A stretch of DNA of 64,000 nt from a virus (taxonomy: Duplodnaviria; Heunggongvirae; Uroviricota; Caudoviricetes): positions 12,922-76,921 of IMG/VR virus record IMGVR_UViG_3300028559_000023. One strand, given 5' to 3'. A program made the translations under genes and the position numbers. Of this stretch, positions 684 to 49,493 are shown in pieces. Each line of letters begins with the position of its first letter. Position 1 is the first letter of the stretch. A model generated the notes under the pieces. That model saw only the letters and a program-made list of their open reading frames with translations, was not told where the DNA came from and searched no databases.

Positions 684-741
684 GTTTGTGCCCGTGAGGT
701 TGGCTTATGCCTTCTTTCACGGGCTTTTTAATGAGGATAAC

Positions 742-8403: not shown

Positions 8404-8404
8404 T

Positions 8405-8998
8405 ATGTATGGCATTTATGATGGTACGCGAGTAATCGCAAAATTTGTGGCGCCTCTTAGCATCATCAGTAATGTACCTGTTGCCATCACACAATCTGCA
8501 AGCCTCAAGATTCATGCTCAACGTTACTCAACTCAAAGATGGGAGATTTCAGCTAACCTGGAACCTCTCAGCTTTGGGGCTGAGTACCTCATGGCGCTGT
8601 TAGTAGCTAATGGCCACTTTAATCCAATTGATGTAGTCGTGCCTCAGAATTACGGCGTGATTAATCGTAGGACTTCTGTGTCCATTTCTACAGCAGCGAC
8701 TGGATCTATAGGCGAGTCAGATGTTGATGTGGTTGGCAATAGCGGTTTGATACCGCTGGGTACATTCATAAAGTTCGGTAACCATAATAAGGTTTATATG
8801 GTTACAAACGACCGTGTTGGTGATGGGCCTATGGGGATTTACCCCACCCTGAGAACTGCGGTCACAGGTATTTCTTTCAAGCACCGAGATGATGTTATCG
8901 CAAAGTTCATGATGGACAGTGATACAGCTATCGGTATGAGCTACACTGATGGCGTACTGATGGATATTGGTACGATTAAATTACTAGAGGATTTATGA
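8405..8998 (+). CDS. minor tail protein (distal tail / tip component, by position)
   Basis: 197-aa ORF starting 2 nt after the tape-measure stop. Sits between the tape-measure and central-fibre genes. Confidence 0.45.
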   Translation: MYGIYDGTRVIAKFVAPLSIISNVPVAITQSASLKIHAQRYSTQRWEISANLEPLSFGAEYLMALLVANGHFNPIDVVVPQNYGVINRRTSVSISTAATGSIGESDVDVVGNSGLIPLGTFIKFGNHNKVYMVTNDRVGDGPMGIYPTLRTAVTGISFKHRDDVIAKFMMDSDTAIGMSYTDGVLMDIGTIKLLEDL

Positions 8999-9561
8999 TT
9001 GAATTTTCTGAGGCTATTCAAGTTTTGCTGGCAGGGCGTTCCTCTGAAGCTTTCTATCTCGTCAAAATCGGCAATAGCTTCAGAACCAGTCATAGCAGCA
9101 ATGTAACTGTTGGTTCTGACACGTATATTGCTGACGGTTCCATTCTAGAAGTCACTCCGGCGGAATTCTCTTCCGTTACAGATAAACAAGAATTCAGTGT
9201 TGCAGTAGCGGACGTAGACAATTTCTTGTCTGACAAGATTACAGCGGGTATCATTGGTCTAAAGGTTGAAGCCCGAATAGGCTTTATAAATCCTGCCACA
9301 GGTGTTGCTTTCACAAGCTACGCTGATACGTTCTTCTTGTACCGGAGTGCTGTTGATAGGGTTGAATTACAAATCGCTACGGGTAGTAGAGGCAAACGCA
9401 ATTTCGTAATTGTTTGCACTAGTCCTCTACATGATCTTGACCAAATAAGGGCTGTTTACACAAGCCAAGACTACGCTAATAGTGTGTTGCCTGGCGACAC
9501 ATCTTATAGCCAAGTCTATCAAGGATCCGGTCAAATAAATCTAAAGTGGGGTAAACTATAA
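8995..9561 (+). CDS. minor tail protein (tip assembly, by position)
   Basis: 188 aa. ATGA overlap with the upstream gene and with the downstream fibre gene. Confidence 0.45.
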   Translation: MIEFSEAIQVLLAGRSSEAFYLVKIGNSFRTSHSSNVTVGSDTYIADGSILEVTPAEFSSVTDKQEFSVAVADVDNFLSDKITAGIIGLKVEARIGFINPATGVAFTSYADTFFLYRSAVDRVELQIATGSRGKRNFVIVCTSPLHDLDQIRAVYTSQDYANSVLPGDTSYSQVYQGSGQINLKWGKL

Positions 9562-12500
9562 TGTTTTGGCTAGTCGTACAAATCGCAATCGCTGCTGGTT
9601 CCATAGCTTACCAGCAATCTCAAGCGCGAAAACAAAGAAAGAAAGCTGCTGAACAAGAAGAAGCTCGTAAGGGTTTTGAAATCGTTGTTGAAGGTGAGAC
9701 TACTCCGTTAGTGCTACCTTATGGTCGAGTCAAAGTGGGAGGTGCCAGAGTATGGCATAATGTAGCTAACAGTTACAAATACGTAGCTAACAACTCCGAC
9801 AAAGTATTTCTAGCGGGTTCTCCCGACGTGCCTCCAGGAACCTACGAAGAATACTTTGCAAACGAGGGCGGCGCCTATACTCAAACAACGTCTTACGGGG
9901 CGATACCTGGCAGCTCCTTGACAAAGGACATAGCGGGCTCAAAGAATGAGTTTCTGTTCTTCCAGCAGGCCTTATGTGTTGGACCAATCAACAGAGTGTA
10001 TGACGTAATCATTGATGGTGACAGAGACATTGATGACCCGTCTCTGGGCTCTACTGCAGTCACGACGTCAGGTGGCAAGATTGTCACGAAGACTACTAGT
10101 TTCAAAGCTGCTCTTCGCATAGATGTTCACAACGGTGTGGCGCCAGTTGCTGACACACTTACAGTAGCTAACTTCCCTGAAAGAGCCACTGCCAGGTTTC
10201 CCAACGCAGCTTACGCTTCAGTCTTTGCAAAGCTTAACCGTGATGACCCGCAGTTTAACGGCGTTTTTGATGTTCAGTTCATAATGGAGGGCTTGATACT
10301 TCCTAAGGTGGTCGGCGGTGTTTTGGGCACGCCTGAGTACTCCACTTCACCTGCCTACGCACTATTACACTACTTGCTTTCGCCTTTTGGAAAGAACCTG
10401 CTTCCTGAAGACATCGATTTAAGCTCGTTTGAGTCGGTGCATAACCGTAGTTACAGGACAGTGGTACCGTCGGCAAAGGTTGGTGGTAAGATTTGGAGAC
10501 CCACTGACGGCTACCGAAATGTTGGCACACGTGCGTTACCTCGCTACGAAACAAATTTGGCGATAAAGACGTCAGACAAGATTAGAGACAACATCACCAA
10601 GCTTCTCTCTTGTCTCGGCCCCACCGCAACACTGCCTTATATTCAGGGCAAGTATCGTCTTGTATTCCAAGATCCGGATACTAACGCAGGCATCGTGGTT
10701 GCTGGTACGATAACAGATGACGACATTGTTGATGAGTCTGACATCAACATCTCTTGGCCTGGTGGAGACGATCGTTTCAACTACGCAACTGTTCGTTTCA
10801 ATAATGCCGAACTTGACTTCAGAGAGGACTCGGTCTCGTGGCCTCCGAAACGCACTGGTACTTACTTCTATGGAGTTGACGGTAATTTGTACCCTATAGT
10901 GGACGGCTGGGACGACACTAAGGCCGGTGGCCAAAAACTTAACAAATATGCCGTCTGGACTGGATCTTCCAATAGCGCTAGCTTTGCCTGGAAATTTGTT
11001 GCGATTAACTCTGGCGTACATACTGTATACTTTACTGCCGGTGGTAGTTGCTCCGTTGTTGCAAAGGGTGTTAGTAGCACCCACAACAATATAAACACCG
11101 TAAAGAACTTTGCAATATCAGCTAACAAGGATGAAGTAATCTCCATTTCTGGTAGTGCCACTTGTACTGCAGACCTTAAGGGTTTTGCAGCTTATGTGGT
11201 GGATTCGGTCGGTGTGACTGTTTGGACGTCCAGATCACCTGCTTATACAGATTTTGTAACCTACACCCAGAGTGACGCGATTTATCAGCAATTGTTAGCT
11301 GAAGACAATGGTGTAGAACTTGAGGCATCCATAACAGCAGATGGCATCGATAACGTATATCATGCACTGGCGAGAGCCGAAGAGACTGTCAGGTCTAGTA
11401 GATCTGCAGTACAAATCGAACTTAAGTATCGCGTGCGAGAGAAGTATTACACGCCAGGCGATTATCTGCTGATTAACTCCGACATCTTAGGTGTGTACAA
11501 CAAGTATTTCCGAGTAGAGACGTCTCGCATGACGGATGCGGTTTCGGCAGAGCTTGCTCTAGTTGGGTTTGATGCTGCACAATTGGCCTGGAATGTACCG
11601 GACAACGTGTATGAAAAGCCAAAGAGTCTTTTTGACTTCAAGCTTGTAGCGCCTTATTCGGTTTCATTCACTAAGAGCAGCAACGTACTAACGTCATCTG
11701 CTGGTACAGTGTCTTGGGCGTCTGCCAATGACTCTAGAAATACTGGTTTCATTGTGTACGTCAACGTCTCTGGAGACTACGACAGCAATGGTCTTCCGCT
11801 GTTCAGAGAAGTCGGGCGTACTGTAGACAACTCCTACGAGCTACCGGCAATAAAGGAAAAGGCCGGCCGTGTTGCAGTCAGGGCGTATAGCGGCAGTGCA
11901 ATGTCCGAGATGATTGAATCCGGACCTATCCTGTTCAACACTAGAGATCTTCAACTTACCTCATCAGAGATCGGTTTCATTAGAAACAAAGCTAATGAAT
12001 ATGTTCCGGGTGAAATACTTATCACAGCTGCTTACAGTGGCTACGACAATCCATCTGTAAAGTGGTTTGAGGATACCGCTGAGATAACGGTTGTTGGTAA
12101 TGTATTGACGCTAGCTCCGTTTACAACAGGCTCCTTCAAGAAGTTCAAGGTTTATGTTGAGGAGCTTGGTGATTCGAGCACTCGGATTGAAAAAGAGTTG
12201 ACGCTGTTTTCAATCGAGGAGGGTAAGGATACAACCTCCATGATGCTTACGCAAGAGATCGCCATACTGCCGGCTAACTACGCAGGCGCTGTCTCTGATT
12301 ACTCTACTGGCACTACCACACTGACTCTCATGGAGGGCTCAAATAACGTAACAGCTGGATGGACAATCACACGTACTTCATCTTCGAGTGTTGCGTCGAC
12401 TATTGCGGGTAATAGTGCCTACAATCACTCCGTCACAGGCCAACCTTCGGTAGTTTTTCAGGTAACCGCGCTTACTGAGGATTCAGGGTATATTGACATA

Positions 12501-15500
12501 GTTGCAACAAAAGGCTCGGCCACACTCACCCGACGTTTCAGTGTAAGCAAACTCAAGACAGCGGCTTCTTCATCCTACGCACTTATCACCGTATATGCTG
12601 AGCGTCCTGTACAACCTTTAGCACCTACTGGCGGTAAATACACAGCGGCCACTGATACCTTTGTGTCGCCTGACGGTTGGTCTAGAACGCTCCCTGCTCT
12701 GAGCTTTGCGCCTATCTGGGGATCTTCTTTTGCATTCGTGTCACCTGATGCTTCCGTTGAACTGGATGGCGGTCCTTGGTCTACCCCGGTGCTCATTGCA
12801 AGTCCCGTAGTGAACGGTCGACGCACTGCCGTACTACAACTATACAAGTGGTCGTCAACACCTCCGACTACTTACCCGGTAGGTACCTCTACTTACAACT
12901 GGCAAACAGGCTTATTTACAGACCCTTCCTTCAACTCAAACGGCTGGACCACCACGCCTGGAACGCCTTCTCCTGGCATGTCACTTTACGTGGTCAGGCA
13001 GATATACACCAACATCGATACGTCTACTGAGAGTGTGGTTACTTGGAGTGCGACAACTTATTCAGTTCTGTCTCAAAGCGGGCTGGATGGTAGCAATGCG
13101 ATAGCTCTTAAGTTAAACGTCAACGCAAATTTGTTTAAGTTTGACAAAGACGGGCTCGGCTCTCCGATATCCCAAACCTTAACCTTCAATACTGTACTGT
13201 CGAACATCTCTGGTACACCCACCCTTGTATGCACACGTTACAACGCGTCAGGAGGATCTCTTGGTACAGTCGCACTAGGTGGTTCCGGATTATCAAGAAC
13301 GTTGACAATAGCGCAATTCGGCACTGCAGCATATGCTGTTATCACCTCCACACTCAGCGGGTACAGTGATCAGATTACTGTTTACAGAAGCGCTGATGGA
13401 GCTACTGGTAGCGCAGCGGTCGTAGGCTATCTGACAAATGAGAGCCACACGGTTCCTGCCGACTCTGGCGGCGTTGTGTCTGCGGGTAATCTCGCTGCCG
13501 CAGCAGGTGCTTTTAAGGTATCCTTTGGTACCACTGATGTAACCAGCAGCAGCACTTTCTCTAAGTTCAGTCAATCTGGACTTGTGGGTAGTATTGACGC
13601 AGCGGGTAACTACACTATCAGCAGCATGTCCGCCGACACAGGTTATATGGTCCTCAGAGCCGTATATAATGGGGTTACGATTGAGAAGACTTTCAATGTC
13701 TCTAAGGCTCGTCAAGGCGCAGCGGGTGAATCAGCTACAGAAAACTTGTATGCGGTGCTGTCCAACGAGAACCACACATTCACGGCGTCTGCAGATGGTA
13801 CAGTAAGTAACTATGGTGGTAGCGGTACAACCATACGCGTGTTTGAGGGCGTTACTGAGCTTACATATGACGGTGTTGGTACTTCAAATGGTACTTACTT
13901 CATCGGTATGGCACCCTCGGGTGTCACGTTAGGTACGCTGTCGGCAAACGGCGATTCAGCGGACATGAGCGCGGTGTCTGCGTTCGTTGCTTCTTCTGGC
14001 TCAATCGTATACACGATTGTTGGTAAGCTTCTTGACGGTACTCCTTTTAACTTAACAAAACAACAAAATTTCTCGAAGGCTTTAGCTGGTGTTGGAGGTG
14101 CTGCAGGTTCTGCTTTCTGGTTGACAAGGTCAGCAGCTTCCATTAGGAAGTCTATTAGCGGCGTGTTGACGCCTAGCGCTCTGACATTCAACGCAATTCA
14201 GTCGAGTGGCTCAACACCGTCTCCTTACTCTGGTCGTTTCAGAATAAGTGTCGACACAGGCGCAGGGTATACTGAGAGCTACGCAAGCATTGTCAATGAG
14301 ACCACAACAAACTTCACGATACCCTCCAACTGTATAAGCCTAAAGGTCGAGTTATTCAGTGATGCTGCCTTTACAAATTTAGTTGATTACGAGATAACCC
14401 CAGTAGTGCTAGACGGGCCTAAGGGCGATTCAGGGATAAGCGCGATACTAAGCAACGAGAGTCATTCTGTGCCATCCGATGCGCAGGGGAATGTTCTGTC
14501 TTATGCTAACTCAGGTACACTGATTTATGTGTATGACGGATCTACTGCTCTTGATTTCGATCAGGCTGGCGCAAGCGCAGGGACCGCTGGTAAGTGGGGC
14601 TTCACGACGACTGTTTCAAACATAGGTTCACCAACCGTTTCAGACGTGGGTTTTCCGGCTTCTGTGGCCGATCTCTCAGGTATGACTTCGGACAGTGCGG
14701 CAATTACCTACAACATATTCGGAAAGAGCCTGGCGGGTAATTCGTTTGCACTCACAAAGACACAAAGTATAACAAAGTCGAAGCAGGGACCCCAAAGCTC
14801 CTCTTTCTGGGTGTCATCGTCAGCGGCTGTAATTCAGAAAAGTAACACATCTGTTTTGAATCCATCTAGCGTTAGATTCTCTGGCTTCAAGAGCACTCAG
14901 GGATTGCCTGAGACTTACGCGGCAAGATTCATAATCCAGACGTCTACAGACGGTACTAACTACACCACTCAGTACACTTCAGGGGCGGATGAGACCTTCA
15001 AAGACTATAGTATTTCCGCCAATGTCAAGTCAGTTAAGGTATCGATGTATGCGGCCGGCGGTGTGAGTACCTTGTTGGATAGTCAGACTGTGCCAGTTGT
15101 ACAAGATGGCGCAACAGGTCCCAATGGCTTAAGATACGGTGCAATGACAATGTACCGTTGGTTGCTTAATAAACCTACAACCTTTCCATCAGGAAATTCT
15201 ACCTATACGTGGGCCTCAGGCGTATTTACCGTTCCGTCAATAACTAACGGCTGGTCGATAACACCGCCTGCAGCTGTGCTTGGCAGTACTCTGTGGGCAA
15301 CTACAGTTACCTTTACTGACTCCGGCTCATCGGCTACTTCAGCCATCACCTGGGCCGTCACTGACTGCTTTGCAGTGTCGTACGCAGGTACCAACGGTTC
15401 CAACGGTACGAGTAGTGCCAGAATTGACATCTTCAGAAGGTCACCGACAGATAACCCGTCAGCTCCTAATGCAACGGCGTCTTATGACTTTGTTTCAGGT

Positions 15501-17690
15501 GTTTTAAACAATCTGACTAATGGGTGGTCCACGACTTGGCCTACGGGAATTGATCCTGTGTATGTTCGTAGTGTTTCTGTTACAGGATCAGGTACAGTAA
15601 ACATACTACCTGCCAACTGGAGCTCTGCTGTTAAGATTGTTGAAAACGGCCTTAACGGTTCTAATGGTTTCAACACAGCGACCATATTCGTATTCAAGCG
15701 AACCACTCTTAACAACCCACCTCCTCCCCCAGGCACAGTAGTCTACGAATTTGCAACAAAGCAAGTTGTGTCTGGCGACTTAGACGGGTGGACGACAAGC
15801 TTACCCACTACAGGTGGTCCTTATAGATGGATGTGTGTAGCAACGGCCAACAGTACGTCAGCTACAGACCAAATTCTGAATGCTGAGTGGTCGGCACCTG
15901 CTCTGGTCAGTCAGGATGGTGTTAATGGCGTCAACGGTACCAAAACGATAACGCTTTCGGTCTACAGATGGCTATCTTTCCAACCCACTACTAACTCTCC
16001 CTACGGCACATACTCTTGGACAAACAACACCGTAACCTTCATCGACGCGCAGGGTTGGACTTTCTATGTACCTACTAATCCCGGTACTCCTGGTATAAGT
16101 CTTTGGCAATTGACCAAGACATTTACGACTGATGCGTCAGACAACGTAACCTCTGTAAGCTGGGCAGGTGTCACACCGGTTGCTGTAAGCGCCAACGGTA
16201 CAAATGGCACAGCGGGTGTGAATGGCTTTCAAAGTACGGAAGTGGTTGTTCATAGGTGGGATGGAAGTACGCCTGCTATATCAGGTACATCTACATACAA
16301 CTGGAGCACCGCGTCTTTCAATGTCAGCCCTAATGGTTGGTTTCCGAATCCAGGTGCTGGAGTTCCCGGCCTCAACTTGTATACTGCAAGAGTGAGAGTC
16401 ACTGATAGCGCAACTGCAAACACTACCAACTTCAACTGGGACGGCGCTACTATAACCGTCACCGGATATAAAGCCGTAGACGGTGCGACTGGCCCTCAGG
16501 GTCCACAGGGGCCGCTAGGACCACAAGGCTCACAAGGCCCTCAGGGTCCACAAGGCCCACAGGGAAGCCAGGGTAATACAGGTCAAACAGGTATTAGTGC
16601 AAGACGAGCCTATACAATATCGATTGCTGACACACTGAGCACACCTGGAGCTACGACTGGGATAAACTCAGTTCCTGCAGGCTACTCTTCGATTGCTGGT
16701 GTACCGACTCCAAATACAAACGAGAAGCTTTTTCAGAGCGATGGTCTTTACAATCCGGCCACTGATATTGTCACTTGGGGTACTCCGTACATCAGTAGTC
16801 TACGTGTCGGCTCTTTGTCCGCCATAACTGTTAATACAGGTGGCCTTAGTGTGACAGGCAATCTAACAATGAGTAGCAGCGGTATGATAAACGCTGGTTC
16901 ATTTGTTGGTTGGTCTTGGCCTACTAGTGGTAGAGGGTTTCATTTAGGGCCTGAAGGTATACTGCTTGGTAGACCTAATAGTGGCGCTTACATGCAGATA
17001 ACTGCTGACGGTAATCTGTATGCACCTGCATTCAGTATCGTCAATGGCGCGGCCACGTTTAGCGGTACACTAAGCGGCGCAAATGGTACTTTCTCAGGAA
17101 CAATCAGCGCAAGCACTATCACAGGTAGTACTATCACTGGTGGCCTGATACGTACTGCTGATAGCGGTAAACGCATAGCTCTTAACGAAGGCGGTTCCAA
17201 CGACCTGGTCTTCTACTCCAACCTACCAGGCTCGCTGCAAATAGTCGCCAGAATCGGTGACAACTACGACAATGGCGATTTCTTAGGCTATAGTATTGGC
17301 AGATTCGGCTTTGTTTCTAGCTCAATAAACGGCGTCTACGGATTGTCAGGTTCTGGTAGCGGCGGCGTATTCTCTTCAGCTACAGGTACCGGTGTTTTTG
17401 GCTTTAGTGATACAGGGTACGCGGCGCTCTTCAGGACTGGAGCCTCTAAGACCAACGGGCAGATCATACTACTTGGTTACAACGACATGACCACCTTTCA
17501 AGATCTGATACCTAATGTCGTTGTTTCAGGCCCCTCTCCAAGAGCGCTAGCATTGGGAGTAGGACCTAACGGTTCGCTACGAATTGCTGATCATAACAGC
17601 ATCGGGACAGTGCTGGATACTTCCCATGTAACTGTTTCAGCGTCGGCGCCCAGCGGCGGTAACGACGGCGACATCTGGATTCAAACATGA
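9561..17690 (+). CDS. central tail fibre / host-specificity protein (J-like), giant, with collagen-like and repeated beta-rich modules
   Basis: 2709 aa, Ser/Thr/Gly/Asn/Val-rich. A collagen-like GPQGPQGPLGPQGSQGPQGPQGPQGSQGNTGQTG run lies at nt 16483-16592. At least six copies of a Y(R/K)W..P(T/S)T.P.G(T/N)STY.W..G.F...GW...P module occur between 12.8 and 16.4 kb. Three copies of an LSNE(S/N)H(T/S)(V/F)...G.V...SG module lie at about 13.43, 13.76 and 14.45 kb. The C-terminus is Gly/Ser/Thr-rich and fibre-tip-like. Confidence 0.8.
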   Translation: MFWLVVQIAIAAGSIAYQQSQARKQRKKAAEQEEARKGFEIVVEGETTPLVLPYGRVKVGGARVWHNVANSYKYVANNSDKVFLAGSPDVPPGTYEEYFANEGGAYTQTTSYGAIPGSSLTKDIAGSKNEFLFFQQALCVGPINRVYDVIIDGDRDIDDPSLGSTAVTTSGGKIVTKTTSFKAALRIDVHNGVAPVADTLTVANFPERATARFPNAAYASVFAKLNRDDPQFNGVFDVQFIMEGLILPKVVGGVLGTPEYSTSPAYALLHYLLSPFGKNLLPEDIDLSSFESVHNRSYRTVVPSAKVGGKIWRPTDGYRNVGTRALPRYETNLAIKTSDKIRDNITKLLSCLGPTATLPYIQGKYRLVFQDPDTNAGIVVAGTITDDDIVDESDINISWPGGDDRFNYATVRFNNAELDFREDSVSWPPKRTGTYFYGVDGNLYPIVDGWDDTKAGGQKLNKYAVWTGSSNSASFAWKFVAINSGVHTVYFTAGGSCSVVAKGVSSTHNNINTVKNFAISANKDEVISISGSATCTADLKGFAAYVVDSVGVTVWTSRSPAYTDFVTYTQSDAIYQQLLAEDNGVELEASITADGIDNVYHALARAEETVRSSRSAVQIELKYRVREKYYTPGDYLLINSDILGVYNKYFRVETSRMTDAVSAELALVGFDAAQLAWNVPDNVYEKPKSLFDFKLVAPYSVSFTKSSNVLTSSAGTVSWASANDSRNTGFIVYVNVSGDYDSNGLPLFREVGRTVDNSYELPAIKEKAGRVAVRAYSGSAMSEMIESGPILFNTRDLQLTSSEIGFIRNKANEYVPGEILITAAYSGYDNPSVKWFEDTAEITVVGNVLTLAPFTTGSFKKFKVYVEELGDSSTRIEKELTLFSIEEGKDTTSMMLTQEIAILPANYAGAVSDYSTGTTTLTLMEGSNNVTAGWTITRTSSSSVASTIAGNSAYNHSVTGQPSVVFQVTALTEDSGYIDIVATKGSATLTRRFSVSKLKTAASSSYALITVYAERPVQPLAPTGGKYTAATDTFVSPDGWSRTLPALSFAPIWGSSFAFVSPDASVELDGGPWSTPVLIASPVVNGRRTAVLQLYKWSSTPPTTYPVGTSTYNWQTGLFTDPSFNSNGWTTTPGTPSPGMSLYVVRQIYTNIDTSTESVVTWSATTYSVLSQSGLDGSNAIALKLNVNANLFKFDKDGLGSPISQTLTFNTVLSNISGTPTLVCTRYNASGGSLGTVALGGSGLSRTLTIAQFGTAAYAVITSTLSGYSDQITVYRSADGATGSAAVVGYLTNESHTVPADSGGVVSAGNLAAAAGAFKVSFGTTDVTSSSTFSKFSQSGLVGSIDAAGNYTISSMSADTGYMVLRAVYNGVTIEKTFNVSKARQGAAGESATENLYAVLSNENHTFTASADGTVSNYGGSGTTIRVFEGVTELTYDGVGTSNGTYFIGMAPSGVTLGTLSANGDSADMSAVSAFVASSGSIVYTIVGKLLDGTPFNLTKQQNFSKALAGVGGAAGSAFWLTRSAASIRKSISGVLTPSALTFNAIQSSGSTPSPYSGRFRISVDTGAGYTESYASIVNETTTNFTIPSNCISLKVELFSDAAFTNLVDYEITPVVLDGPKGDSGISAILSNESHSVPSDAQGNVLSYANSGTLIYVYDGSTALDFDQAGASAGTAGKWGFTTTVSNIGSPTVSDVGFPASVADLSGMTSDSAAITYNIFGKSLAGNSFALTKTQSITKSKQGPQSSSFWVSSSAAVIQKSNTSVLNPSSVRFSGFKSTQGLPETYAARFIIQTSTDGTNYTTQYTSGADETFKDYSISANVKSVKVSMYAAGGVSTLLDSQTVPVVQDGATGPNGLRYGAMTMYRWLLNKPTTFPSGNSTYTWASGVFTVPSITNGWSITPPAAVLGSTLWATTVTFTDSGSSATSAITWAVTDCFAVSYAGTNGSNGTSSARIDIFRRSPTDNPSAPNATASYDFVSGVLNNLTNGWSTTWPTGIDPVYVRSVSVTGSGTVNILPANWSSAVKIVENGLNGSNGFNTATIFVFKRTTLNNPPPPPGTVVYEFATKQVVSGDLDGWTTSLPTTGGPYRWMCVATANSTSATDQILNAEWSAPALVSQDGVNGVNGTKTITLSVYRWLSFQPTTNSPYGTYSWTNNTVTFIDAQGWTFYVPTNPGTPGISLWQLTKTFTTDASDNVTSVSWAGVTPVAVSANGTNGTAGVNGFQSTEVVVHRWDGSTPAISGTSTYNWSTASFNVSPNGWFPNPGAGVPGLNLYTARVRVTDSATANTTNFNWDGATITVTGYKAVDGATGPQGPQGPLGPQGSQGPQGPQGPQGSQGNTGQTGISARRAYTISIADTLSTPGATTGINSVPAGYSSIAGVPTPNTNEKLFQSDGLYNPATDIVTWGTPYISSLRVGSLSAITVNTGGLSVTGNLTMSSSGMINAGSFVGWSWPTSGRGFHLGPEGILLGRPNSGAYMQITADGNLYAPAFSIVNGAATFSGTLSGANGTFSGTISASTITGSTITGGLIRTADSGKRIALNEGGSNDLVFYSNLPGSLQIVARIGDNYDNGDFLGYSIGRFGFVSSSINGVYGLSGSGSGGVFSSATGTGVFGFSDTGYAALFRTGASKTNGQIILLGYNDMTTFQDLIPNVVVSGPSPRALALGVGPNGSLRIADHNSIGTVLDTSHVTVSASAPSGGNDGDIWIQT

Positions 17691-20047: not shown

Positions 20048-20590
20048 ATGAAATTCGAGAAAGTAACTGAGACTGCATACTACGCAGAAGACGGCTCACA
20101 CATTCTCAAAGAAGGCGACGAATGGGTAAAGCGAGACAGAAAGGGCAAACGCCTAGACTCAAGCAGCAATGCTGACATGTTACTGGGAGAAGTTGATTGG
20201 CGTGGTCGTGCGTATCCGTCTGTCAATCAGATCACGGTCAATGTCAACTCGAGTGTGACTTCGAAGAGTCTTGGACAGCTGCTTCGTGAAAAAATCTACG
20301 CCGACGAGGCTCAGCGAACGATCAAGATGTTCTTCAGGGATGTCCCTATTGGACAAACTTTCGTGGATGCCCACGGAAAAGTCTACGCGAAGGATGCAAC
20401 ATCGGCTAGCTGGGCACGTCGTTCACTTGACGGCGCAAACCGCCATTTTGCTCACGATGACGAAGTGGAACTCGTCGGATCCAGCACTCTAGTCAGTAAT
20501 TTCAATCAGGCTCCGGTCAAGTCCCACTTCTTCGCCGGTCCGCGACGTTACTTCAAGAGCGCTGTCGATATGTGTGTGAGGGCTTCATGA
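20048..20590 (+). CDS. hypothetical protein
   Basis: 180-aa ORF with a tight 3-nt gap from the upstream gene. Confidence 0.55.
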   Translation: MKFEKVTETAYYAEDGSHILKEGDEWVKRDRKGKRLDSSSNADMLLGEVDWRGRAYPSVNQITVNVNSSVTSKSLGQLLREKIYADEAQRTIKMFFRDVPIGQTFVDAHGKVYAKDATSASWARRSLDGANRHFAHDDEVELVGSSTLVSNFNQAPVKSHFFAGPRRYFKSAVDMCVRAS

Positions 20591-20946
20591 TGAAATGGCA
20601 GATTTGGTTTGCGTGGTACCCAGTGGCCTTCGGGCCGCATATTGCCTGGATGAAGTACGTCCAGCGTCGCAGAGACCTTGACGACGGTTCTTGGATCTAC
20701 AGGCGCGACATTTTTCCTTTGGACAGTCCTTCGTACCATTTCAGAAATCTTCCGTGCAGCGTAGTTCAAGACGAAGATCTTTGGTACGTTGCAGGGCACC
20801 TCTACAAGAATAATGAGATCACAATGTCCGGCATTCTTGAGTGGTGCACGAGTAAAGAAGACGCTGATGCAGTATGGCGTCGCATGGTAAACTCAGGCAC
20901 TGATTTCAGAAACCTCTACTTTGCAAAGTTTCTCGCAAATGACTAA
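20587..20946 (+). CDS. hypothetical protein
   Basis: ATGATG at 20587 overlaps the upstream TGA, with GAGGG 6 nt upstream. This is an in-frame later start of track ORF 20572. Confidence 0.5.
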   Translation: MMKWQIWFAWYPVAFGPHIAWMKYVQRRRDLDDGSWIYRRDIFPLDSPSYHFRNLPCSVVQDEDLWYVAGHLYKNNEITMSGILEWCTSKEDADAVWRRMVNSGTDFRNLYFAKFLAND

Positions 20947-21025
20947 ACCTACTCCCGCAGGCTGGTTCTGGCTGTGCTACACAGTCACAATCCTTTCAAT
21001 TCTCTCAACCATGGTGCAGTGGTGA
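20939..21025 (+). CDS. small hydrophobic peptide (28 aa, one predicted transmembrane segment)
   Basis: ATG at 20939 overlaps the upstream stop region. Product MTKPTPAGWFWLCYTVTILSILSTMVQW. Not in the track because it is under 60 aa. Confidence 0.3.
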   Translation: MTKPTPAGWFWLCYTVTILSILSTMVQW

Positions 21026-21152
21026 ACCAGATCAATTGGCTTAAAGAAATCGTCACATCTGACTCAAAGGATGACGAACCCTTCAATTCACCTTTCTTGT
21101 CTGCTTGGTTTTCGGACACCTCGATCTTAGATGCTGCTGACGCGCTAGGTGT

Positions 21153-21419
21153 GTGGTGCATGGGAGGTCCGCTTTGAGCTTCATTCAGAACGTATCCTTG
21201 GATGACATCGTAAAGGCCTGGCACTACGACCCTGGTGTTAACAGTATGTTGATACAGATCGTGGATGTCGAACGGCCGACTTTTCCGAAACCTTTGTATG
21301 TGTTTAAGGAGACGCATCAGTTTCGCTTCGACGACATCGATGAGGGCCTACAGCAATACGTCCAGGTCAGGCAGCGCAGATTGCCGATCTGCTACGAAAA
21401 GCTCTTGAACTACGAATGA
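21153..21419 (+). CDS. CX5R-family (tyrosine/dual-specificity-type) phosphatase, N-terminal part, upstream of a -1 frameshift
   Basis: GTG start. Contains the general-acid-like region FRFDDIDEG about 35 aa before the P-loop encoded in the next frame. Ends LPICYEKLLNYE with stop at 21417-21419. Confidence 0.45.
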   Translation: MVHGRSALSFIQNVSLDDIVKAWHYDPGVNSMLIQIVDVERPTFPKPLYVFKETHQFRFDDIDEGLQQYVQVRQRRLPICYEKLLNYE

Positions 21420-21574
21420 ACGTGATTGTCCATTGCGCGGCTGGTATTTGTAGGAGCGGTGCTGTAGTTGAAGCCGGCGTTGTTCTTGGCTTCGACGACA
21501 CACAGACAATGAGGATACCGAACACCCTTGTCAAGACATCAATCCTTGAACAACTAGGATTCAAACATCAATGA
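21416..21574 (+). CDS. CX5R phosphatase P-loop fragment (MNVIVHCAAGICRSGA...), in the -1 frame relative to 21153..21419
   Basis: HCxAGxxRSG is the signature active site of Cys-based protein/RNA phosphatases. The -1 frame is open from 21344 and encodes ...GQAAQIADLLRKALELRMNVIVHC. The overlap contains GAAAAG. Confidence 0.5.
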   Translation: MNVIVHCAAGICRSGAVVEAGVVLGFDDTQTMRIPNTLVKTSILEQLGFKHQ

Positions 21575-21873
21575 CCACCTTCGCCAATACTCTCAAAGCT
21601 GCAGCTAACCATCAGCTTGAGGACGGCCCTTATGAGACAGGCCATACCGGCAGAACACGCTACAGCTGCGTTGCAATACACTTTGAAGAAAGAAAACACA
21701 AGCTTGATATATCAGGTCCCTGCGAACTTTGGTATGCAGCCAACGCTTTCGGAGACCTGGATATCGATTGCGTACCCTCGCTGATCCGGTCTTCTTGTGG
21801 CGATGAAGCGCAGAATGTACGCTTTATGCTTTTGATGTTCATGTCCTATCTTGCCAAAGACTCGGGGTTGTGA
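21571..21873 (+). CDS. hypothetical protein
   Basis: ATGA overlap with the upstream gene. 100 aa. Confidence 0.5.
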   Translation: MTTFANTLKAAANHQLEDGPYETGHTGRTRYSCVAIHFEERKHKLDISGPCELWYAANAFGDLDIDCVPSLIRSSCGDEAQNVRFMLLMFMSYLAKDSGL

Positions 21874-22025
21874 TGCGTGAATTTCTTTTAGGGCTTGTGT
21901 GCTGTCTTGTTGCGTTCGCCATGGGGAGCTACATGGCAAGGACTAGAATAGAAAACGAGTGCAAAAACTTTGGGCTGTTCATAAGCGGCTCCAACAAATA
22001 CAGTTGCAAAACTGCGGAAAAATAG
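21873..22025 (+). CDS. small secreted/membrane peptide (50 aa) with an N-terminal signal-like segment
   Basis: ATG overlaps the upstream TGA. Product begins MREFLLGLVCCLVAFAMGSY... Not in the track. Confidence 0.35.
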   Translation: MREFLLGLVCCLVAFAMGSYMARTRIENECKNFGLFISGSNKYSCKTAEK

Positions 22026-22090
22026 CCATCCTATATGAAGAGCTCGAAAGAGTTACTTCTTAACCTACCAACCATCGAAGGAAACCTATC

Positions 22091-22489
22091 ATGCGTGAAA
22101 TTGCCATTTTTGCCGCGATCTGCCTGATCGCTTTGTTCTGCGCCGTTCTGTCGGTGTTCGGCCTCACCGTCGCCGCTTCTGCAGTCGCTGTTGCAGTTGC
22201 CGTTTCGGTGTTTGCTGGCGTGTTCGGTCAAGCTGTCAATCTCCTGTCTGTCGGCCTGTTGGCGATTTGGCGTGAGATTCTGTGGTTTCTGGAGCTGATG
22301 GGCGCACCCATTTTCTTCGGAATCTTGTTGCAGAAAATTGCAGTTGCCTACTTTGGTTACGGTGCCTTCGGTATCGCTTTCCTCAGCGGCTTCGGCTTGT
22401 TTCTGTTCAACGCAGCTGTCTACATTGTCATCTTCTGGGTGACCATGCGTCTCGTTCGTGAAGTTCAAATCATCGCAGCCAACGCCTAA
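22091..22489 (+). CDS. integral membrane protein (about 4 transmembrane segments)
   Basis: 132 aa, strongly hydrophobic throughout. A conserved leader AACCTACCAACCA lies 17 nt upstream of the ATG. Confidence 0.6.
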   Translation: MREIAIFAAICLIALFCAVLSVFGLTVAASAVAVAVAVSVFAGVFGQAVNLLSVGLLAIWREILWFLELMGAPIFFGILLQKIAVAYFGYGAFGIAFLSGFGLFLFNAAVYIVIFWVTMRLVREVQIIAANA

Positions 22490-22498
22490 GGAGGCAAT

Positions 22499-22720
22499 AT
22501 GCTCGCAATCATCTGGGTTACCATCGCTGCACTGTTGGCGATTGCTGCGCTCATAGTGGGCGCTTTTGAGAAAAACAAACTTCGGTTCCAAACCGAGTTC
22601 GCTGAAGAGCTTCGCAAAATGGAGGCTTGGGAAAAGGCCGGCGGTGTCTGGCTCACACTGCAAGAGAAGCACGCCGACGGGTGGCGCACTCAAGCTGTCT
22701 TGCAGGGGAGGCTGTCATGA
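22499..22720 (+). CDS. small membrane protein (1 transmembrane segment)
   Basis: RBS AAGGAGG upstream. N-terminal transmembrane segment IIWVTIAALLAIAALIVGAF. Confidence 0.55.
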   Translation: MLAIIWVTIAALLAIAALIVGAFEKNKLRFQTEFAEELRKMEAWEKAGGVWLTLQEKHADGWRTQAVLQGRLS

Positions 22721-23022
22721 GAAACCTCAGCAACATGCTTCGCTCAGCCAACAGCTTGCTTCGGCGGGCAAACGAAGCGTTAACCGAAGAGATTCGGAAA
22801 GCGCGCGACGAACACAAGAACAACAAAGAAGTTCTGAAGCTCATCGACGTCATCTGTATGCGACATCGACAGCATACGCTTCGCGAGACCACAGAGGCAA
22901 CACTTCGCAACCTGGTGAAAGAAGATCTCGACAACATCGTGGATCTTGTTGAGCTGGTGCTTCTGTGTACGACAACGCAGGCGCGGATGTTTGAGCTTGT
23001 GGCGCGCAACAAGGGCCGATAA
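22717..23022 (+). CDS. hypothetical protein
   Basis: ATGA overlap with the upstream gene; this is the in-frame later start of track ORF 22627. Its last 10 nt, including the stop codon, lie inside tRNA-Met. Confidence 0.45.
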   Translation: MRNLSNMLRSANSLLRRANEALTEEIRKARDEHKNNKEVLKLIDVICMRHRQHTLRETTEATLRNLVKEDLDNIVDLVELVLLCTTTQARMFELVARNKGR

Positions 23023-23089
23023 CTCAATAGGTTAGAGTAGCCGACTCATAATCGGTTAGTTACAGGTTCGAGTCCTGTTCGGCCCACCA
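23013..23089 (+). tRNA. tRNA-Met (anticodon CAT; elongator type or Ile2), CCA encoded
   Basis: Cloverleaf folded by hand. Acceptor GGGCCGA/TCGGCCC. D-stem ACTC/GAGT with GG in the loop. Anticodon loop CTCATAA. T-arm ACAGG-TTCGAGT-CCTGT. Discriminator A followed by CCA. Confidence 0.8.
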
Positions 23090-23543: not shown

Positions 23544-23767
23544 TCCAGTACTACGACTTCGCAATCCAGTTCACGGAAAGCACCTTCCTTGGCCTCGACA
23601 GTGGTTACAATCCGATTGAAGTTGACAGCATCAAGCACGCTTGTCGATTCGAGCGTTTTGAGTTGGCTGACAACTATCTCAAAAGCTGGCCGAAGGATCG
23701 TTTTCCAGCCTCTACAAGCATCGTGCGTGTGTACAACACCTCAGAGATCGTGAAACAGCGCGGTTGA
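23540..23767 (+). CDS. hypothetical protein
   Basis: ATGA overlap with the upstream gene. 75 aa. The 3' end overlaps the start of tRNA-Leu. Confidence 0.5.
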   Translation: MIQYYDFAIQFTESTFLGLDSGYNPIEVDSIKHACRFERFELADNYLKSWPKDRFPASTSIVRVYNTSEIVKQRG

Positions 23768-23842
23768 CGGAACCGGTAGACGTAGCGGGCTTAAAACCCG
23801 CAGCCGAAAGGCGTATGGGTTCGATTCCCATACCGCGCACCA
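23758..23842 (+). tRNA. tRNA-Leu (anticodon TAA), class II with long variable arm, CCA encoded
   Basis: Acceptor GCGCGGT/ACCGCGC. Anticodon stem GCGGG/CCCGC with loop CTTAAAA. Variable arm AGCCGAAAGGCGT. T-arm ATGGG-TTCGATT-CCCAT. Ends A + CCA. Confidence 0.75.
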
Positions 23843-25466: not shown

Positions 25467-25470
25467 GCCA

Positions 25471-25515
25471 CTCAGCCTTCGGGCTGGGTGGTTGTAGTCC
25501 CTCTTTTTTTTTTTT
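25471..25515 (+). terminator. intrinsic terminator (hairpin with UUCG loop plus a 12-T run)
   Basis: CTCAGCC-TTCG-GGCTGGG stem at 25471-25488. T12 at 25504-25515. Confidence 0.7.
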
Positions 25516-25532
25516 CGCTGGAAGGAGGTCGT

Positions 25533-25756: not shown

Positions 25757-28009
25757 ATGTCAGTAAAACTAACTAAATCGATAATTGTAGCATCCATAAC
25801 TAATCGACTTGCCAACGAAATAGCACCACAGAACCCTGTGTCTTTTTTACTAAAGCACACTGTGGATGACTACTACTCAGAACTCATAAGTACGCTGTAC
25901 CTGTACACAAGGCCCAAAAAGGGTGCCAAGTCGCAGAACATTTACTTCTCAGAGCTTATATCAGCTTTAGGCCACACAATACGCTCCAAACTAGGCCATC
26001 GTAAAGACTCGGCTGTTGCTGCAAAAACCGGAGCGTTTCTGTTGTATACGTTCCAGACCTTGGGCGTTCTAGAGTTGGTGGTCGTTGCAGGAAAATCACA
26101 TGCAACTTATGCAATAGTTGTTAAAGATGAAGAAGCAATTGCTGCAATATGGAGCACACTGTCTTTTGAAAAGGTTAGAAAGCTCCCCACACTTTCAAAG
26201 CCTTCAGATTGGGTCGGTACTAGACATCCTTCCGGTGTCATGATCGTGAAGACAGGTAGCTCAGAGGTGCTCAAGTCCTTGAGCCCTTCCAATCAGCCAA
26301 TGGTGTTTGAGTCTCTCAACAGATCACAACGTATCGGTTGGAATGTAAATAGCGAGTTGCTCACTGTTGCAGCCTGGGCCTTGAAGAATCGTACTGACGC
26401 TTTTGCGGATATCTGGGAGCAGGTCAACCCAGAAGCCAGGGCCACAAAAGTCAGAGAAGCAAAAGCTATCACTGACATGGGCAAACGGCTACTCAACAAA
26501 ACTTTTTACCATGTCTATTACTACGACTTTCGTGGTCGTAAGTACCCATCATCAGCCTATCTACACGAGCAAGGTTCTGACTTATCAAAAGGCCTATTGT
26601 TGCGAGCCGAAAGGAAACCGATAGGTGCAAGAGGCTATTGGTGGTTAATGGTCACTATCGCGTCGGAGTGGGCGGGTGATGCAGATAGATCTGACGGTCT
26701 TAAGACTGACAAGATACCTCTACAAAACCGATTTGAGTGGGCTGAGCGTCATGAAGATCTTTTGCTGTCTTATGCTGAAGCGCCGAAGATAAACACTGGA
26801 TGGATGTCTGCAGAAAATCCATGGAGATTCCTGGCTGGCTGTATTGAGCTTAAAAATCTACGAGTGTGGCAGTTCAACAACAACGATTTCAACAGCTACG
26901 GCTATCAATCTGGGTACTTGGGTTTCATAGACGGATCCAACAATGGTTGCCAACACCTTGCTGCTCTTACGCGAGACGAGGTTACGGCCGTACATGTGAA
27001 CCTTGTCAAACAGGAATACCCCGGTGATTTGTATCGTTATGTGGCTTCAAGCGTGTGGGAGAGCGTCAACGCTGAAGTGTCAAGGCTGCCAGCTGATGTA
27101 GTTGCACGCGCAGACGCTTTTATTGATGACCTGATGACTCTTAAACGCGAGATATCGGCGAAAGAATTCTCTGACGAGACAAGAGCGCCACTGGTAAACG
27201 CTCTGTTAGCGCTTAAGAACTCCAATCCTGATATCGATGTTATTACACCACAAGTCTTCTGGCGTCGCGTAGATAGCGCCAAAGAGAGGCGCAAGATTGT
27301 CAAACGAAACGTGATGACACTACCGTACGGAGGTACGCCATACGGTCTTGGAGAGCAGCAGATAAGTGACGCAAAGAAACATGGCATTGCGCTTCTGCTT
27401 CATATGCAACATCGATGGGCTGCTTTTATGGGGCGTCGTGTGTACGAAGACTGCAAGGTTTCTCTTAAGCGCCCTATGCAGCTTCTTAGCCTGTTTGAAG
27501 ACGCAGGCAGAAAGGCCGAGGAAGAAGGTCGCTTTCTTAGCTGGGTGGTCCCTATAACAAAGTTTCCCGTAGTTCAGAATTACACATCTGGAAAGATAAA
27601 GAAGATCTATGTGCAGTACGGTCCTCCAGTCGGTGCCAGAAAGAGTACTGGTTACTATGAGAACACACTGCAGATAAATATTTGTTTTATCGAAGATGTC
27701 GAGCCAACTAAGGGTAAACAAATTCAAGGCGCCAGTCCTAATGCAATCCACTCTCTAGACGCTGCTCATGTTGCCATAACCGTGTGCAATACTGACGCAG
27801 ATATCACTACTATCCACGACAGCTTTGGCGCTCTCCTTTCAGATATGGATGAGCTTTTTGTGTCTGTTAGAAAGTCATTTGTACAACTCTACAATGTAAA
27901 CCCTCTTAAGCAACTATTTGATGACATCGGCGCTGACATGTCAAATGTTTCATTTGGAAACTTGGACGTCTCAGCTATACTTGAATCTGAATACGCATTT
28001 AGCCCATGA
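25757..28009 (+). CDS. single-subunit DNA-directed RNA polymerase (T7-like), compact 750-aa form
   Basis: Carries ...IDGSNNGCQHLAALTRD... (compare T7 DGSCSGIQHFSAMLRD), ...HSLDAAHV... and ...IHDSFGALL... (T7 HDSFGT). Confidence 0.85.
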   Translation: MSVKLTKSIIVASITNRLANEIAPQNPVSFLLKHTVDDYYSELISTLYLYTRPKKGAKSQNIYFSELISALGHTIRSKLGHRKDSAVAAKTGAFLLYTFQTLGVLELVVVAGKSHATYAIVVKDEEAIAAIWSTLSFEKVRKLPTLSKPSDWVGTRHPSGVMIVKTGSSEVLKSLSPSNQPMVFESLNRSQRIGWNVNSELLTVAAWALKNRTDAFADIWEQVNPEARATKVREAKAITDMGKRLLNKTFYHVYYYDFRGRKYPSSAYLHEQGSDLSKGLLLRAERKPIGARGYWWLMVTIASEWAGDADRSDGLKTDKIPLQNRFEWAERHEDLLLSYAEAPKINTGWMSAENPWRFLAGCIELKNLRVWQFNNNDFNSYGYQSGYLGFIDGSNNGCQHLAALTRDEVTAVHVNLVKQEYPGDLYRYVASSVWESVNAEVSRLPADVVARADAFIDDLMTLKREISAKEFSDETRAPLVNALLALKNSNPDIDVITPQVFWRRVDSAKERRKIVKRNVMTLPYGGTPYGLGEQQISDAKKHGIALLLHMQHRWAAFMGRRVYEDCKVSLKRPMQLLSLFEDAGRKAEEEGRFLSWVVPITKFPVVQNYTSGKIKKIYVQYGPPVGARKSTGYYENTLQINICFIEDVEPTKGKQIQGASPNAIHSLDAAHVAITVCNTDADITTIHDSFGALLSDMDELFVSVRKSFVQLYNVNPLKQLFDDIGADMSNVSFGNLDVSAILESEYAFSP

Positions 28010-47343: not shown

Positions 47344-47696
47344 GTCAGCCCAACTTTGGAAAGTTGTACACTGAAAAGTGGCCATACCGAGAAGACGCAG
47401 GTGTAGGGCTATCTTTCAGAGGTCTACCGACCAGTCTAGAAGATTTTCAAAGCGTACTAATGGACTTCAGCTGCCACCCAGTAGCTGCGGAAAGAATCTT
47501 CAATCGCATTAGAGAAAATGGTGAGACAAAGACGACTGTGGTTGCTTTTCTGGATTTTGAAAAGCTATCCAGTATGCTTGCAGAGCTCGGAGTCTCTTTA
47601 TCTATTGTACCACCAATCGACAACCCCGTGTCTTATGAATATGATACTCCCTTTCCATCTTCTTTCATCCCGCCTCATTTGAGAAAGCCGTCTTAG
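47340..47696 (+). CDS. hypothetical protein
   Basis: ATGA overlap with the upstream gene. 118 aa. The stop codon lies inside the 5' end of tRNA-Thr. Confidence 0.5.
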   Translation: MSQPNFGKLYTEKWPYREDAGVGLSFRGLPTSLEDFQSVLMDFSCHPVAAERIFNRIRENGETKTTVVAFLDFEKLSSMLAELGVSLSIVPPIDNPVSYEYDTPFPSSFIPPHLRKPS

Positions 47697-47762
47697 CTCC
47701 AGCGGTAGAGCAATCGCCTTGTAAGCGAGAGGTCGTCGGTTCGAATCCGACAGACGGCACCA
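47687..47762 (+). tRNA. tRNA-Thr (anticodon TGT), CCA encoded
   Basis: Acceptor GCCGTCT/AGACGGC. D-arm GCTC-CAGCGGTA-GAGC. Anticodon loop CTTGTAA. T-arm GTCGG-TTCGAAT-CCGAC. Ends A + CCA. Confidence 0.7.
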
Positions 47763-49416: not shown

Positions 49417-49493
49417 CCGACCATAGCTCAGCTGGATAGAGCAGCGGACTTCTAATCCGCAGGTCAGAGGTTCGAATCCTCTTGGTCGGACCA
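49417..49493 (+). tRNA. tRNA-Arg (anticodon TCT), CCA encoded
   Basis: Acceptor CCGACCA/TGGTCGG. D-arm GCTC-AGCTGGATA-GAGC. Anticodon stem GCGGA/TCCGC with loop CTTCTAA. T-arm AGAGG-TTCGAAT-CCTCT. Ends A + CCA. Confidence 0.8.

Follow-up and report, generated by a model that had tools for sequence, protein, structure and literature searches.

In a 64,000-nucleotide stretch of a caudoviricete genome (positions 12,922 to 76,921 of IMG/VR record IMGVR_UViG_3300028559_000023, hereafter the window), the P-loop of a putative Cys-based phosphatase is read in a different frame from the ORF that precedes it, and the question is whether this plus-strand locus is a broken gene, a sequencing error or a gene expressed by programmed slippage. 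Three-frame forward translation of 21152-21576 confirmed the layout given in the preliminary description, including the frames, their overlap and the GAAAAG motif within it. The first start of the frame-0 ORF is GTG 21153 and its stop is TGA 21417-19; it encodes ...FKETHQFRFDDIDEG and then LQQYVQVRQRRLPICYEKLLNYE before the stop (in the longer reading, ...IQIVDVERPTFPKPLYVFKETHQFRFDDIDEG and then LQQYVQVRQRRLPICYEKLLNYE). In the -1 frame, a TGA at 21341-43 is followed by an open stretch from 21344 to TGA 21572-74, encoding GPTAIRPGQAAQIADLLRKALELRMNVIVHCAAGICRSGAVVEAG...KHQ and a stop (in full, GPTAIRPGQAAQIADLLRKALELRMNVIVHCAAGICRSGAVVEAGVVLGFDDTQTMRIPNTLVKTSILEQLGFKHQ). The second ORF is shifted by -1 against the first (21153 mod 3 = 0; 21416 mod 3 = 2), and the two frames are simultaneously open only from 21344 to 21419.

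TTG 21174 is more likely to be the true start of the gene than GTG 21153, because it fits the N-termini of the homologues (MSFIQNVS from this TTG, M-x-FIQNVS in alignment A1, which holds the joined protein and 28 homologues) and because a Shine-Dalgarno (SD)-like GGAGG (21163-21167, plus strand) can be read in the sequence six bases 5' of it. The TTG overlaps the TGA (21175-77) of an upstream 67-aa ORF. The second ORF as called by gene finders (ORF B, 52 aa, 21416-21574, plus strand) starts at ATG 21416, which overlaps the frame-0 stop as ATGA (21416-19), and no SD could be read ahead of this ATG. The codon corresponds to M82, a residue common in the phosphatase family (HMN or RMN in many homologues of alignment A1). 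At the 3' end, the -1-frame stop TGA 21572-74 shares bases with the start codon of the next gene, ATG 21571.

A family profile that excluded the window sequence and was made from 28 intact homologues matched frame 0 over profile positions 2-59 (82.8 bits, E 3.3e-27; nt 21180-21356) and the -1 frame over positions 60-132 (105.3 bits, E 3.6e-34; nt 21350-21568). The two matches are contiguous and non-overlapping, with zero profile positions lost or duplicated. As judged from these matches, the two ORFs are the halves of one gene, far beyond chance, and the earlier claim of a single CX5R phosphatase gene split by a -1 change is upheld. Over its whole length, the disrupted gene (21174-21574, plus strand) can be aligned with intact homologues, which are 130-180 aa long and 52-64% identical. 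It consists of a 5' segment in frame 0 (21174-21347, residues M1-G58) and a 3' segment in the -1 frame (21347-21574, P59-Q133 and the stop), while the out-of-frame tail of the frame-0 ORF (LQQYVQVRQRRLPICYEKLLNYE, 21348-21419, closed by its TGA) is without family homology. Joining the frames at GAG-GGC/C (21344-21347) gives a reconstructed product of 133 aa.

A search of a 5.8-billion-cluster protein collection with the joined protein returned 1397 matches, the best full-length one at 62% identity; the best 120 of the 1397 are nearly all 130-186 aa long, with 88-96% query coverage and 50-62% identity. The match to phrog_5614 spans the junction (residues 30-108, E 5e-9). The Pfam model DSPc (PF00782) matches the P-loop half only, at 24.5-25 bits and below its gathering cut-off of 33.5, and a precomputed PF00782 match is present in many homologues; none of the NCBIfam models matches this phosphatase family.

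The catalytic residues are divided between the two frames. The P-loop H87-C88-A-A-G-I-C-R94-S95-G96 (HCX5RSG; 21431-21460, plus strand, Cys codon at 21434-36, Arg codon at 21452-54) lies in the -1 frame, where VIVHCAAGICRSG at 21422-21460 carries the signature H-C-X5-R-(S/T). The acid loop F52-D53-D54-I55-D56-E57 (21327-21344, plus strand) comes from the upstream ORF, as had been suggested at the outset; F52 and D54 are invariant in the family, and E56 is nearly so. By analogy with the dual-specificity-type phosphatases (DSPs), D54, 34 residues before C88, is the presumed general acid. The joined protein retains 32/32 invariant family columns of alignment A1, among them F52, D54, A67, L74, A77 and N83-V86-H87-C88-G91-C93-R94-S95-G96-A97. 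No single uninterrupted frame encodes the whole catalytic domain, since the P-loop is in the -1 frame and frame 0 ends at 21419.

The AF2 model of the joined 133-aa protein, prepared with alignment A1, is one compact domain (pLDDT 94.2, pTM 0.89). Its elements are, in order, β1 (3-7), α1 (9-14), β2 (24-30), β3 (46-51), the loop 52-63, α2 (64-79), β4 (83-87), the P-loop, α3 (94-105) and α4 (118-127). In this model the 5' segment would supply β1-β3, α1 and the acid loop, and the 3' segment α2, β4, the P-loop, α3 and α4, so that ORF B would lack α2 and three of the four strands. The junction G58/P59 sits mid-domain, within the acid loop 52-63, which is length-variable across the family. Foldseek against the PDB placed DUSP8, vaccinia VH1 and DUSP5 at the top (probability 1.00, TM ~0.6), and against BFVD it found A0A6J7WSV8, an uncultured-caudovirus DSP (TM 0.95, 43% identity), with jumbo-phage and giant-virus DSPs among the more distant matches; this DSP fold assignment applies only to the conceptually joined protein.

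By sequence and predicted structure, then, the gene is a small phage Cys-based CX5R phosphatase of the DSP type. It shares with the DSPs of the PTP superfamily (PF00782; VH1, DUSP5, DUSP8) the HCX5R(S) P-loop, an Asp loop about 34 residues upstream and the α/β fold, but its identity to VH1, DUSP5 and DUSP8 is only 14-20% at a TM of ~0.6, and at 133 aa, with four strands in the model, it is smaller. Its closest kin are the small phage DSP-like phosphatases (phrog_5614; A0A6J7WSV8; the JGI 'predicted protein tyrosine phosphatase'), which belong to the same family and are 52-64% identical over the joined protein. The window copy differs from these relatives in having Ala after the catalytic Cys (HCAAG), where they have V, H or E, and it is the sole copy seen with its coding sequence in two frames. 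Members of the RNA 5'-phosphatase branch are not known to have a general acid; with an invariant Asp loop and an HCX5RS P-loop, the predicted activity of the family fits a DSP-like phosphomonoesterase better than that branch.

The position of the frame switch is narrowly limited. Since the -1 frame is stopped at 21341-43 and its homology begins downstream, from T60/A61/I62 (21350-58), the switch lies within about 21344-21356 (plus strand; GGGCCTACAGCAA). The simplest cause would be the loss of one G at the run 21344-46 (GGGG to GGG). With one G restored the sequence reads GAT GAG GG(G) CCT ACA GCA ATA, giving ...DEG-PTAIRPGQAAQ..., and the restored loop is as short as any in the family, such as that of P0005. 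The trans-frame peptide predicted from joining the frames is ...FDDIDEGPTAIRPGQAAQIADLLR.

In other elements, the gene is found whole. At least 582 loci in IMG/VR encode relatives, the best 80 of which each match as a single segment. We scanned 101 loci in three frames with the family profile, 91 from other elements and 10 from this phage. One near-full-length single-frame copy is present in 88 of the 91, and a further one, L047, carries an intact tandem pair; of the last two, L100 retains no more than a decayed remnant of the C-terminus and L101 is only distantly related. With the whole domain thus encoded in one frame at 89/91 loci, the P-loop half does not occur as a small protein of its own in this family, which was the outcome named in the preliminary description as refuting. 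A split at the acid loop was seen in 0/91 other-element loci, and split copies are limited to the ten loci of the same phage. The family is nearly confined to viral contigs (185,579 species genomes gave only 5 loci, each of them in a MAG), and its carriers range from ~75-kb phage genomes to jumbo phages. In GenBank phages, tblastn found a sole homologue, in Synechococcus phage BUCT-ZZ01 (39.7%), which is distant and intact, with the match almost wholly inside one annotated CDS. The literature searched yielded no experimentally characterised member of the phage phosphatase family.

Diverged relatives of the phage itself were also sought through the downstream gene (21571-21873), an ORFan that matches only itself. 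As no diverged relative was found and the neighbour is an ORFan, the ancestral state of the locus is not directly seen. Among 80 IMG/VR loci compared for synteny with the window, the only sharing is of a distant primase-helicase (~28% identity) in L017 and L059; both have an intact phosphatase upstream of the primase-helicase, but at this degree of divergence neither can act as an outgroup. A megablast of 20500-22500 against GenBank phages gave zero matches.

Within this phage, the break recurs in every assembly recovered. The pair of an 81/87-aa ORF and a 52-aa ORF is present on 23 contigs, in JGI 3300027728, 3300027730 and 3300028553, in ENA ERZ27250570 and in Logan SRR8441833, SRR8441834 and SRR8441843. 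The downstream neighbour gene was found on 23 contigs, and the ORF pair was present in 5/5 representative places (18 more being grouped as similar). The truncated upstream product (ORF A) forms a six-entry cluster whose members differ only in the called start, apart from one D56E variant; its contigs, from JGI, ENA and Logan assemblies, reach 76,921 bp, and ORF B is recorded on nine contigs. The junction GAGGGCC is identical in 10/10 loci of this phage compared, and the fetched contigs are 99.97-100% identical to the window. All these contigs represent one clonal phage population of ~77 kb, known from metagenomes only. Because the population is clonal (≥99.97%), agreement among the contigs says nothing on selection. 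The protein collection searched yielded no intact allele of high identity, its best full-length match standing at 62%. Searching for an intact allele or another strain with a DNA pattern that left the length of the G run variable gave 0 matches in IMG/VR and 0 in JGI metagenome_contigs, collections evidently without this phage.

One variant adjoins the junction. In JGI contigs L003 and L004, position 21341 (plus strand) is G in place of T, changing D56 to E56 and removing the -1 TGA, so that the two-frame overlap extends from 21308; the allele reads GAGGAGGG. L003 and L004 differ from the window at three and two positions over 20 kb and 7 kb, respectively, and T21341G is common to both. Three random SNPs would place at least one in 400 of 20,246 bases with a probability of about 6%, and the position of T21341G, at a nearly invariant residue, is weakly in line with relaxed constraint. 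If E is the ancestral residue, D56 would be a substitution at a constrained site, arising after the frameshift or hitch-hiking with it.

The surroundings of the gene resemble those of an accessory locus. All genes of the window are on the plus strand. They include a T7-type single-subunit RNA polymerase (25757-28009; PF00940, E 3e-59), a family A DNA polymerase, a primase-helicase, a class II ribonucleotide reductase, a DNA ligase, a 5'-3' exonuclease and a distal tail protein, together with giant ORFs at 688-8403 and 9561-17690 and four tRNAs. The phosphatase is embedded in a series of small ORFan genes that separates the giant ORFs from the RNA polymerase gene; stop/start overlaps chain these small genes (TTGA 21174-77, ATGA 21416-19, ATGA 21571-74). 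The region looks like an early region of the host-takeover type, where accessory genes are commonly gained and lost.

Taken together, the evidence makes it probable that a real, recent and lineage-specific deletion of one nucleotide turned an accessory phosphatase gene into a pseudogene. The frame break itself, where it lies, its recurrence in all assemblies and the whole state of the family elsewhere are shown here, whereas what exactly the lesion was, how recent it is and that activity went with it we infer. One base would have been lost from the G run 21344-46, inside the variable acid loop, and the lesion would have become fixed in the one clonal ~77-kb population. Ribosomes starting at TTG 21174 would then make an 81-aa product comprising β1-β3, the acid loop and 23 out-of-frame residues, devoid of α2, β4 and the catalytic P-loop. 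At most, termination at TGA 21417-19 would be followed by re-initiation at ATG 21416, yielding a 52-aa C-terminal fragment. No active enzyme is expected, since neither piece is a complete domain. The locus resembles other accessory-gene frameshift pseudogenes of phages in having a single indel, in a non-essential early-region gene with intact orthologues and a decayed copy elsewhere (L100); its lesion would be very young and is without secondary damage. No decay beyond the shift itself is seen, the 32 invariant residues, the SD and the start codon all being intact; a recent lesion would leave this picture, and so, equally, would a gene still being expressed by recoding.

Such recoding would take a non-canonical form, in which the tRNA-Gly on GGC (21345-47) slips by -1 onto GGG (21344-46), CCT (21347-49) is decoded next, and a fraction of ribosomes completes the 133-aa phosphatase. 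Several features speak for it: a slip at G_GGC would yield exactly the protein predicted from homology, the expression signals and all invariant residues are preserved, every assembly has the shift fixed, and purine runs resembling GAGG or GGAGG lie directly upstream, the variant allele reading GAGGAGGG. The signals that commonly drive -1 shifts are another matter. The frame-0 codons of the overlap are GAG GGC CTA CAG CAA TAC GTC CAG GTC AGG CAG CGC AGA TTG CCG ATC TGC TAC GAA AAG CTC TTG AAC TAC GAA TGA, and no X_XXY_YYZ heptamer could be found by eye in frame 0 over 21342-21419; at the Gly site, moreover, the A-site CTA cannot re-pair with CCT. The single-tRNA slip motifs present are G_GGC (21344-47) and A_AAG (21398-21401), which occur in frame 41 and 115 times, respectively, in 13,322 ordinary codons of the window. 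Folding of 21336-21460 gave no stimulatory RNA structure (-31.5 kcal/mol against a shuffle mean of -35.5 kcal/mol, z +1.07), with 173/200 shuffles as stable or more so. That a hungry codon (a rare CUA) stimulates a P-site slip was also considered and rejected, CTA making up 11% of Leu codons and thus not being rare.

The position of the upstream purines is equally unhelpful to this alternative. An SD-like element abutting the slip site stimulates +1 shifts, as in prfB, whereas the element for the -1 shift of dnaX lies ~10 nt away; the purines here abut the site and have the +1-type spacing, and no SD-like element could be read 10-14 nt upstream of either G_GGC or A_AAG. Known programmed -1 sites include A_AAA_AAG of dnaX, G_GGA_AAG of lambda G/GT and CGA_AAG of B. 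subtilis cdd. The window resembles such genes in its overlapping ORFs, with the downstream one in -1 and with the tetramers G_GGC and A_AAG in the overlap, but it is without a tandem heptamer, an SD-like or hairpin stimulator and conservation, and the shift falls mid-domain. Unlike in known genes with two programmed frameshift products, the frame-0 product is a truncated half-domain without evident function, and no diverged family member carries the shift. We therefore regard recoding at the Gly codon as unlikely, and it is a shade less likely still that the phosphatase is made in this way at a low and possibly regulated level, by a G_GGC slip that needs neither heptamer nor structure.

A sequencing or assembly artefact, with a true genome that is intact and has, for example, GGGG at 21344-46, is highly improbable. 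A one-base change in a short G run does look like an error, GGC-rich contexts are trouble spots for Illumina sequencing, and some of the supposedly independent assemblies may share reads. Against this, the same junction appears in all ten contigs compared among the 23, which derive from three pipelines (JGI, MEGAHIT-style ENA and Logan) and a minimum of seven samples, and the variant haplotype, with its SNP 3 nt away, has it as well. A run of three bases is, moreover, not indel-prone, and the protein collection searched yielded no intact near-identical protein.

We give equally little credence to a functional split enzyme, in which the 81-aa and 52-aa pieces associate or serve a new function. 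Overlaps such as ATGA 21416-19 are classic in translational coupling, ORF B, if translated, would keep the coupling to the next gene through the second ATGA, and both ORFs are called by gene finders. In the model, however, α2 (64-79) packs on the P-loop strand and is translated in neither piece. The M82 codon and its ATGAA context are ancestral in the family, so that the overlap is incidental; ATG 21416 has no SD before it, and no other family member is split.

The GAAAAG motif (21396-21401, plus strand) that the preliminary description had singled out as a candidate slip site is present, but homology rejects it as the switch point: over 21357-21400 the homologous frame is already -1 (IRPGQAAQIADLLRK), and frame 0 (YVQVRQRRLPICYEK) matches nothing. 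Its A_AAG (21398-21401) is a slip-prone tetramer inside the overlap, resembling the single-tRNA-Lys slips at dnaX and at CGA_AAG of B. subtilis cdd, and its product would have the length usual in the family; yet a slip there would swap the homologous PTAIRPGQAAQIADLLRK, with the invariant A67 and L74, for LQQYVQVRQRRLPICYEK, and it could not lead to a functional enzyme, as α2, A67 and L74 would be destroyed, the absence of an SD-like element and of downstream structure and the 115 in-frame occurrences elsewhere leaving it a negligible chance. Thus, among the three readings first entertained for the split gene, a pseudogene fits best, an error is made very unlikely by the 23 contigs, and programmed slippage finds neither signals nor conservation in its favour.

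For annotation, this means that the 81/87-aa and 52-aa ORFs are to be described as one disrupted DSP-type phosphatase gene and not as two hypothetical proteins. The finding is an ordinary one, and would be of interest to the frameshifting field only if the recoding reading were true, in which case a phage early gene would use G_GGC as a novel kind of recoding site, to hold a potentially toxic, host-directed phosphatase at trace dosage. With the pseudogene reading, a phosphatase family of at least 1397 proteins and at least 582 IMG/VR loci would be dispensable for at least one environmentally recurrent phage. The family itself, with its minimal DSP fold of 130 aa, is more interesting than the broken copy.

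A comparison of the window with two JGI contigs of the same clonal phage (L003 and L004, the latter being Ga0247836_1013144) shows a single-nucleotide difference in the phosphatase gene: T at window position 21341 is replaced by G in both JGI contigs (L003 position 10168, L004 position 2847). This change places Glu56, the family's near-invariant acid-loop residue, where the window encodes Asp56, and at the same time abolishes the -1 frame stop, so that the stretch in which both frames are open is extended to 21308–21419. Only three such differences (21341, 22015 and 22031) separate the assemblies over 20 kb, and the sole indel seen between them is in a T run at 25505–25516, which has one base fewer in L004.

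This T run belongs to an element at 25470–25516 that precedes both a small ORF and the gene for the RNA polymerase and consists of a GC-rich hairpin, CCACTCAGCC-TTCG-GGCTGGGTGG, 12 bases, and then the 12 T residues; the whole looks like an intrinsic terminator.

The phosphatase reading frames themselves lie in a chain of four successive ORFs (20974–21177, 21174–21419, 21416–21574 and 21571–21873) linked by 4-base stop/start overlaps, which are TTGA, ATGA and ATGA in that order. No PHROG match was found for the neighbouring ORFs at 20048–20590, 20572–20946, 20974–21177 and 21571–21873, and the last of these had no homologue in the protein collection searched. Shortly 3′ of this block of small ORFs are two tRNA genes, Met-CAT (23013–23089) and Leu-TAA (23758–23842); two others, Thr-TGT (47687–47762) and Arg-TCT (49417–49493), lie further along. 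Elsewhere in the window, two giant plus-strand ORFs of 2571 and 2709 residues (688–8403 and 9561–17690), the second with a weak collagen-repeat match, flank a distal-tail-protein gene (8405–8998, phrog_1302). Since the DUF1800 domain occurs mostly in bacterial proteins of unknown function, the 650-residue ORF at 60211–62163, which matches it strongly (E 3e-49), is unusual for a phage.

Members of the phosphatase family, DSP-fold proteins of about 130 residues for which we found no experimental characterisation in the literature, are carried nearly always on viral contigs, with at least 582 loci in IMG/VR, including contigs of 200–350 kb, and on the cellular side five MAG loci in 185,579 species genomes. 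One viral contig (L047, IMGVR_UViG_3300027759_001090) carries two intact copies in tandem, at 7738–8145 and 8201–8611. On the MAG contig JAKQDR010000036.1 (L100, about 3040–3201), the C-terminal part alone of a family member is left (LVHCHAGVCRSGAVAEVG...YAPE*); the N-terminal half is missing, and stop codons precede the surviving part. This remnant is a separate pseudogene of the same phosphatase family, further decayed and of independent origin.
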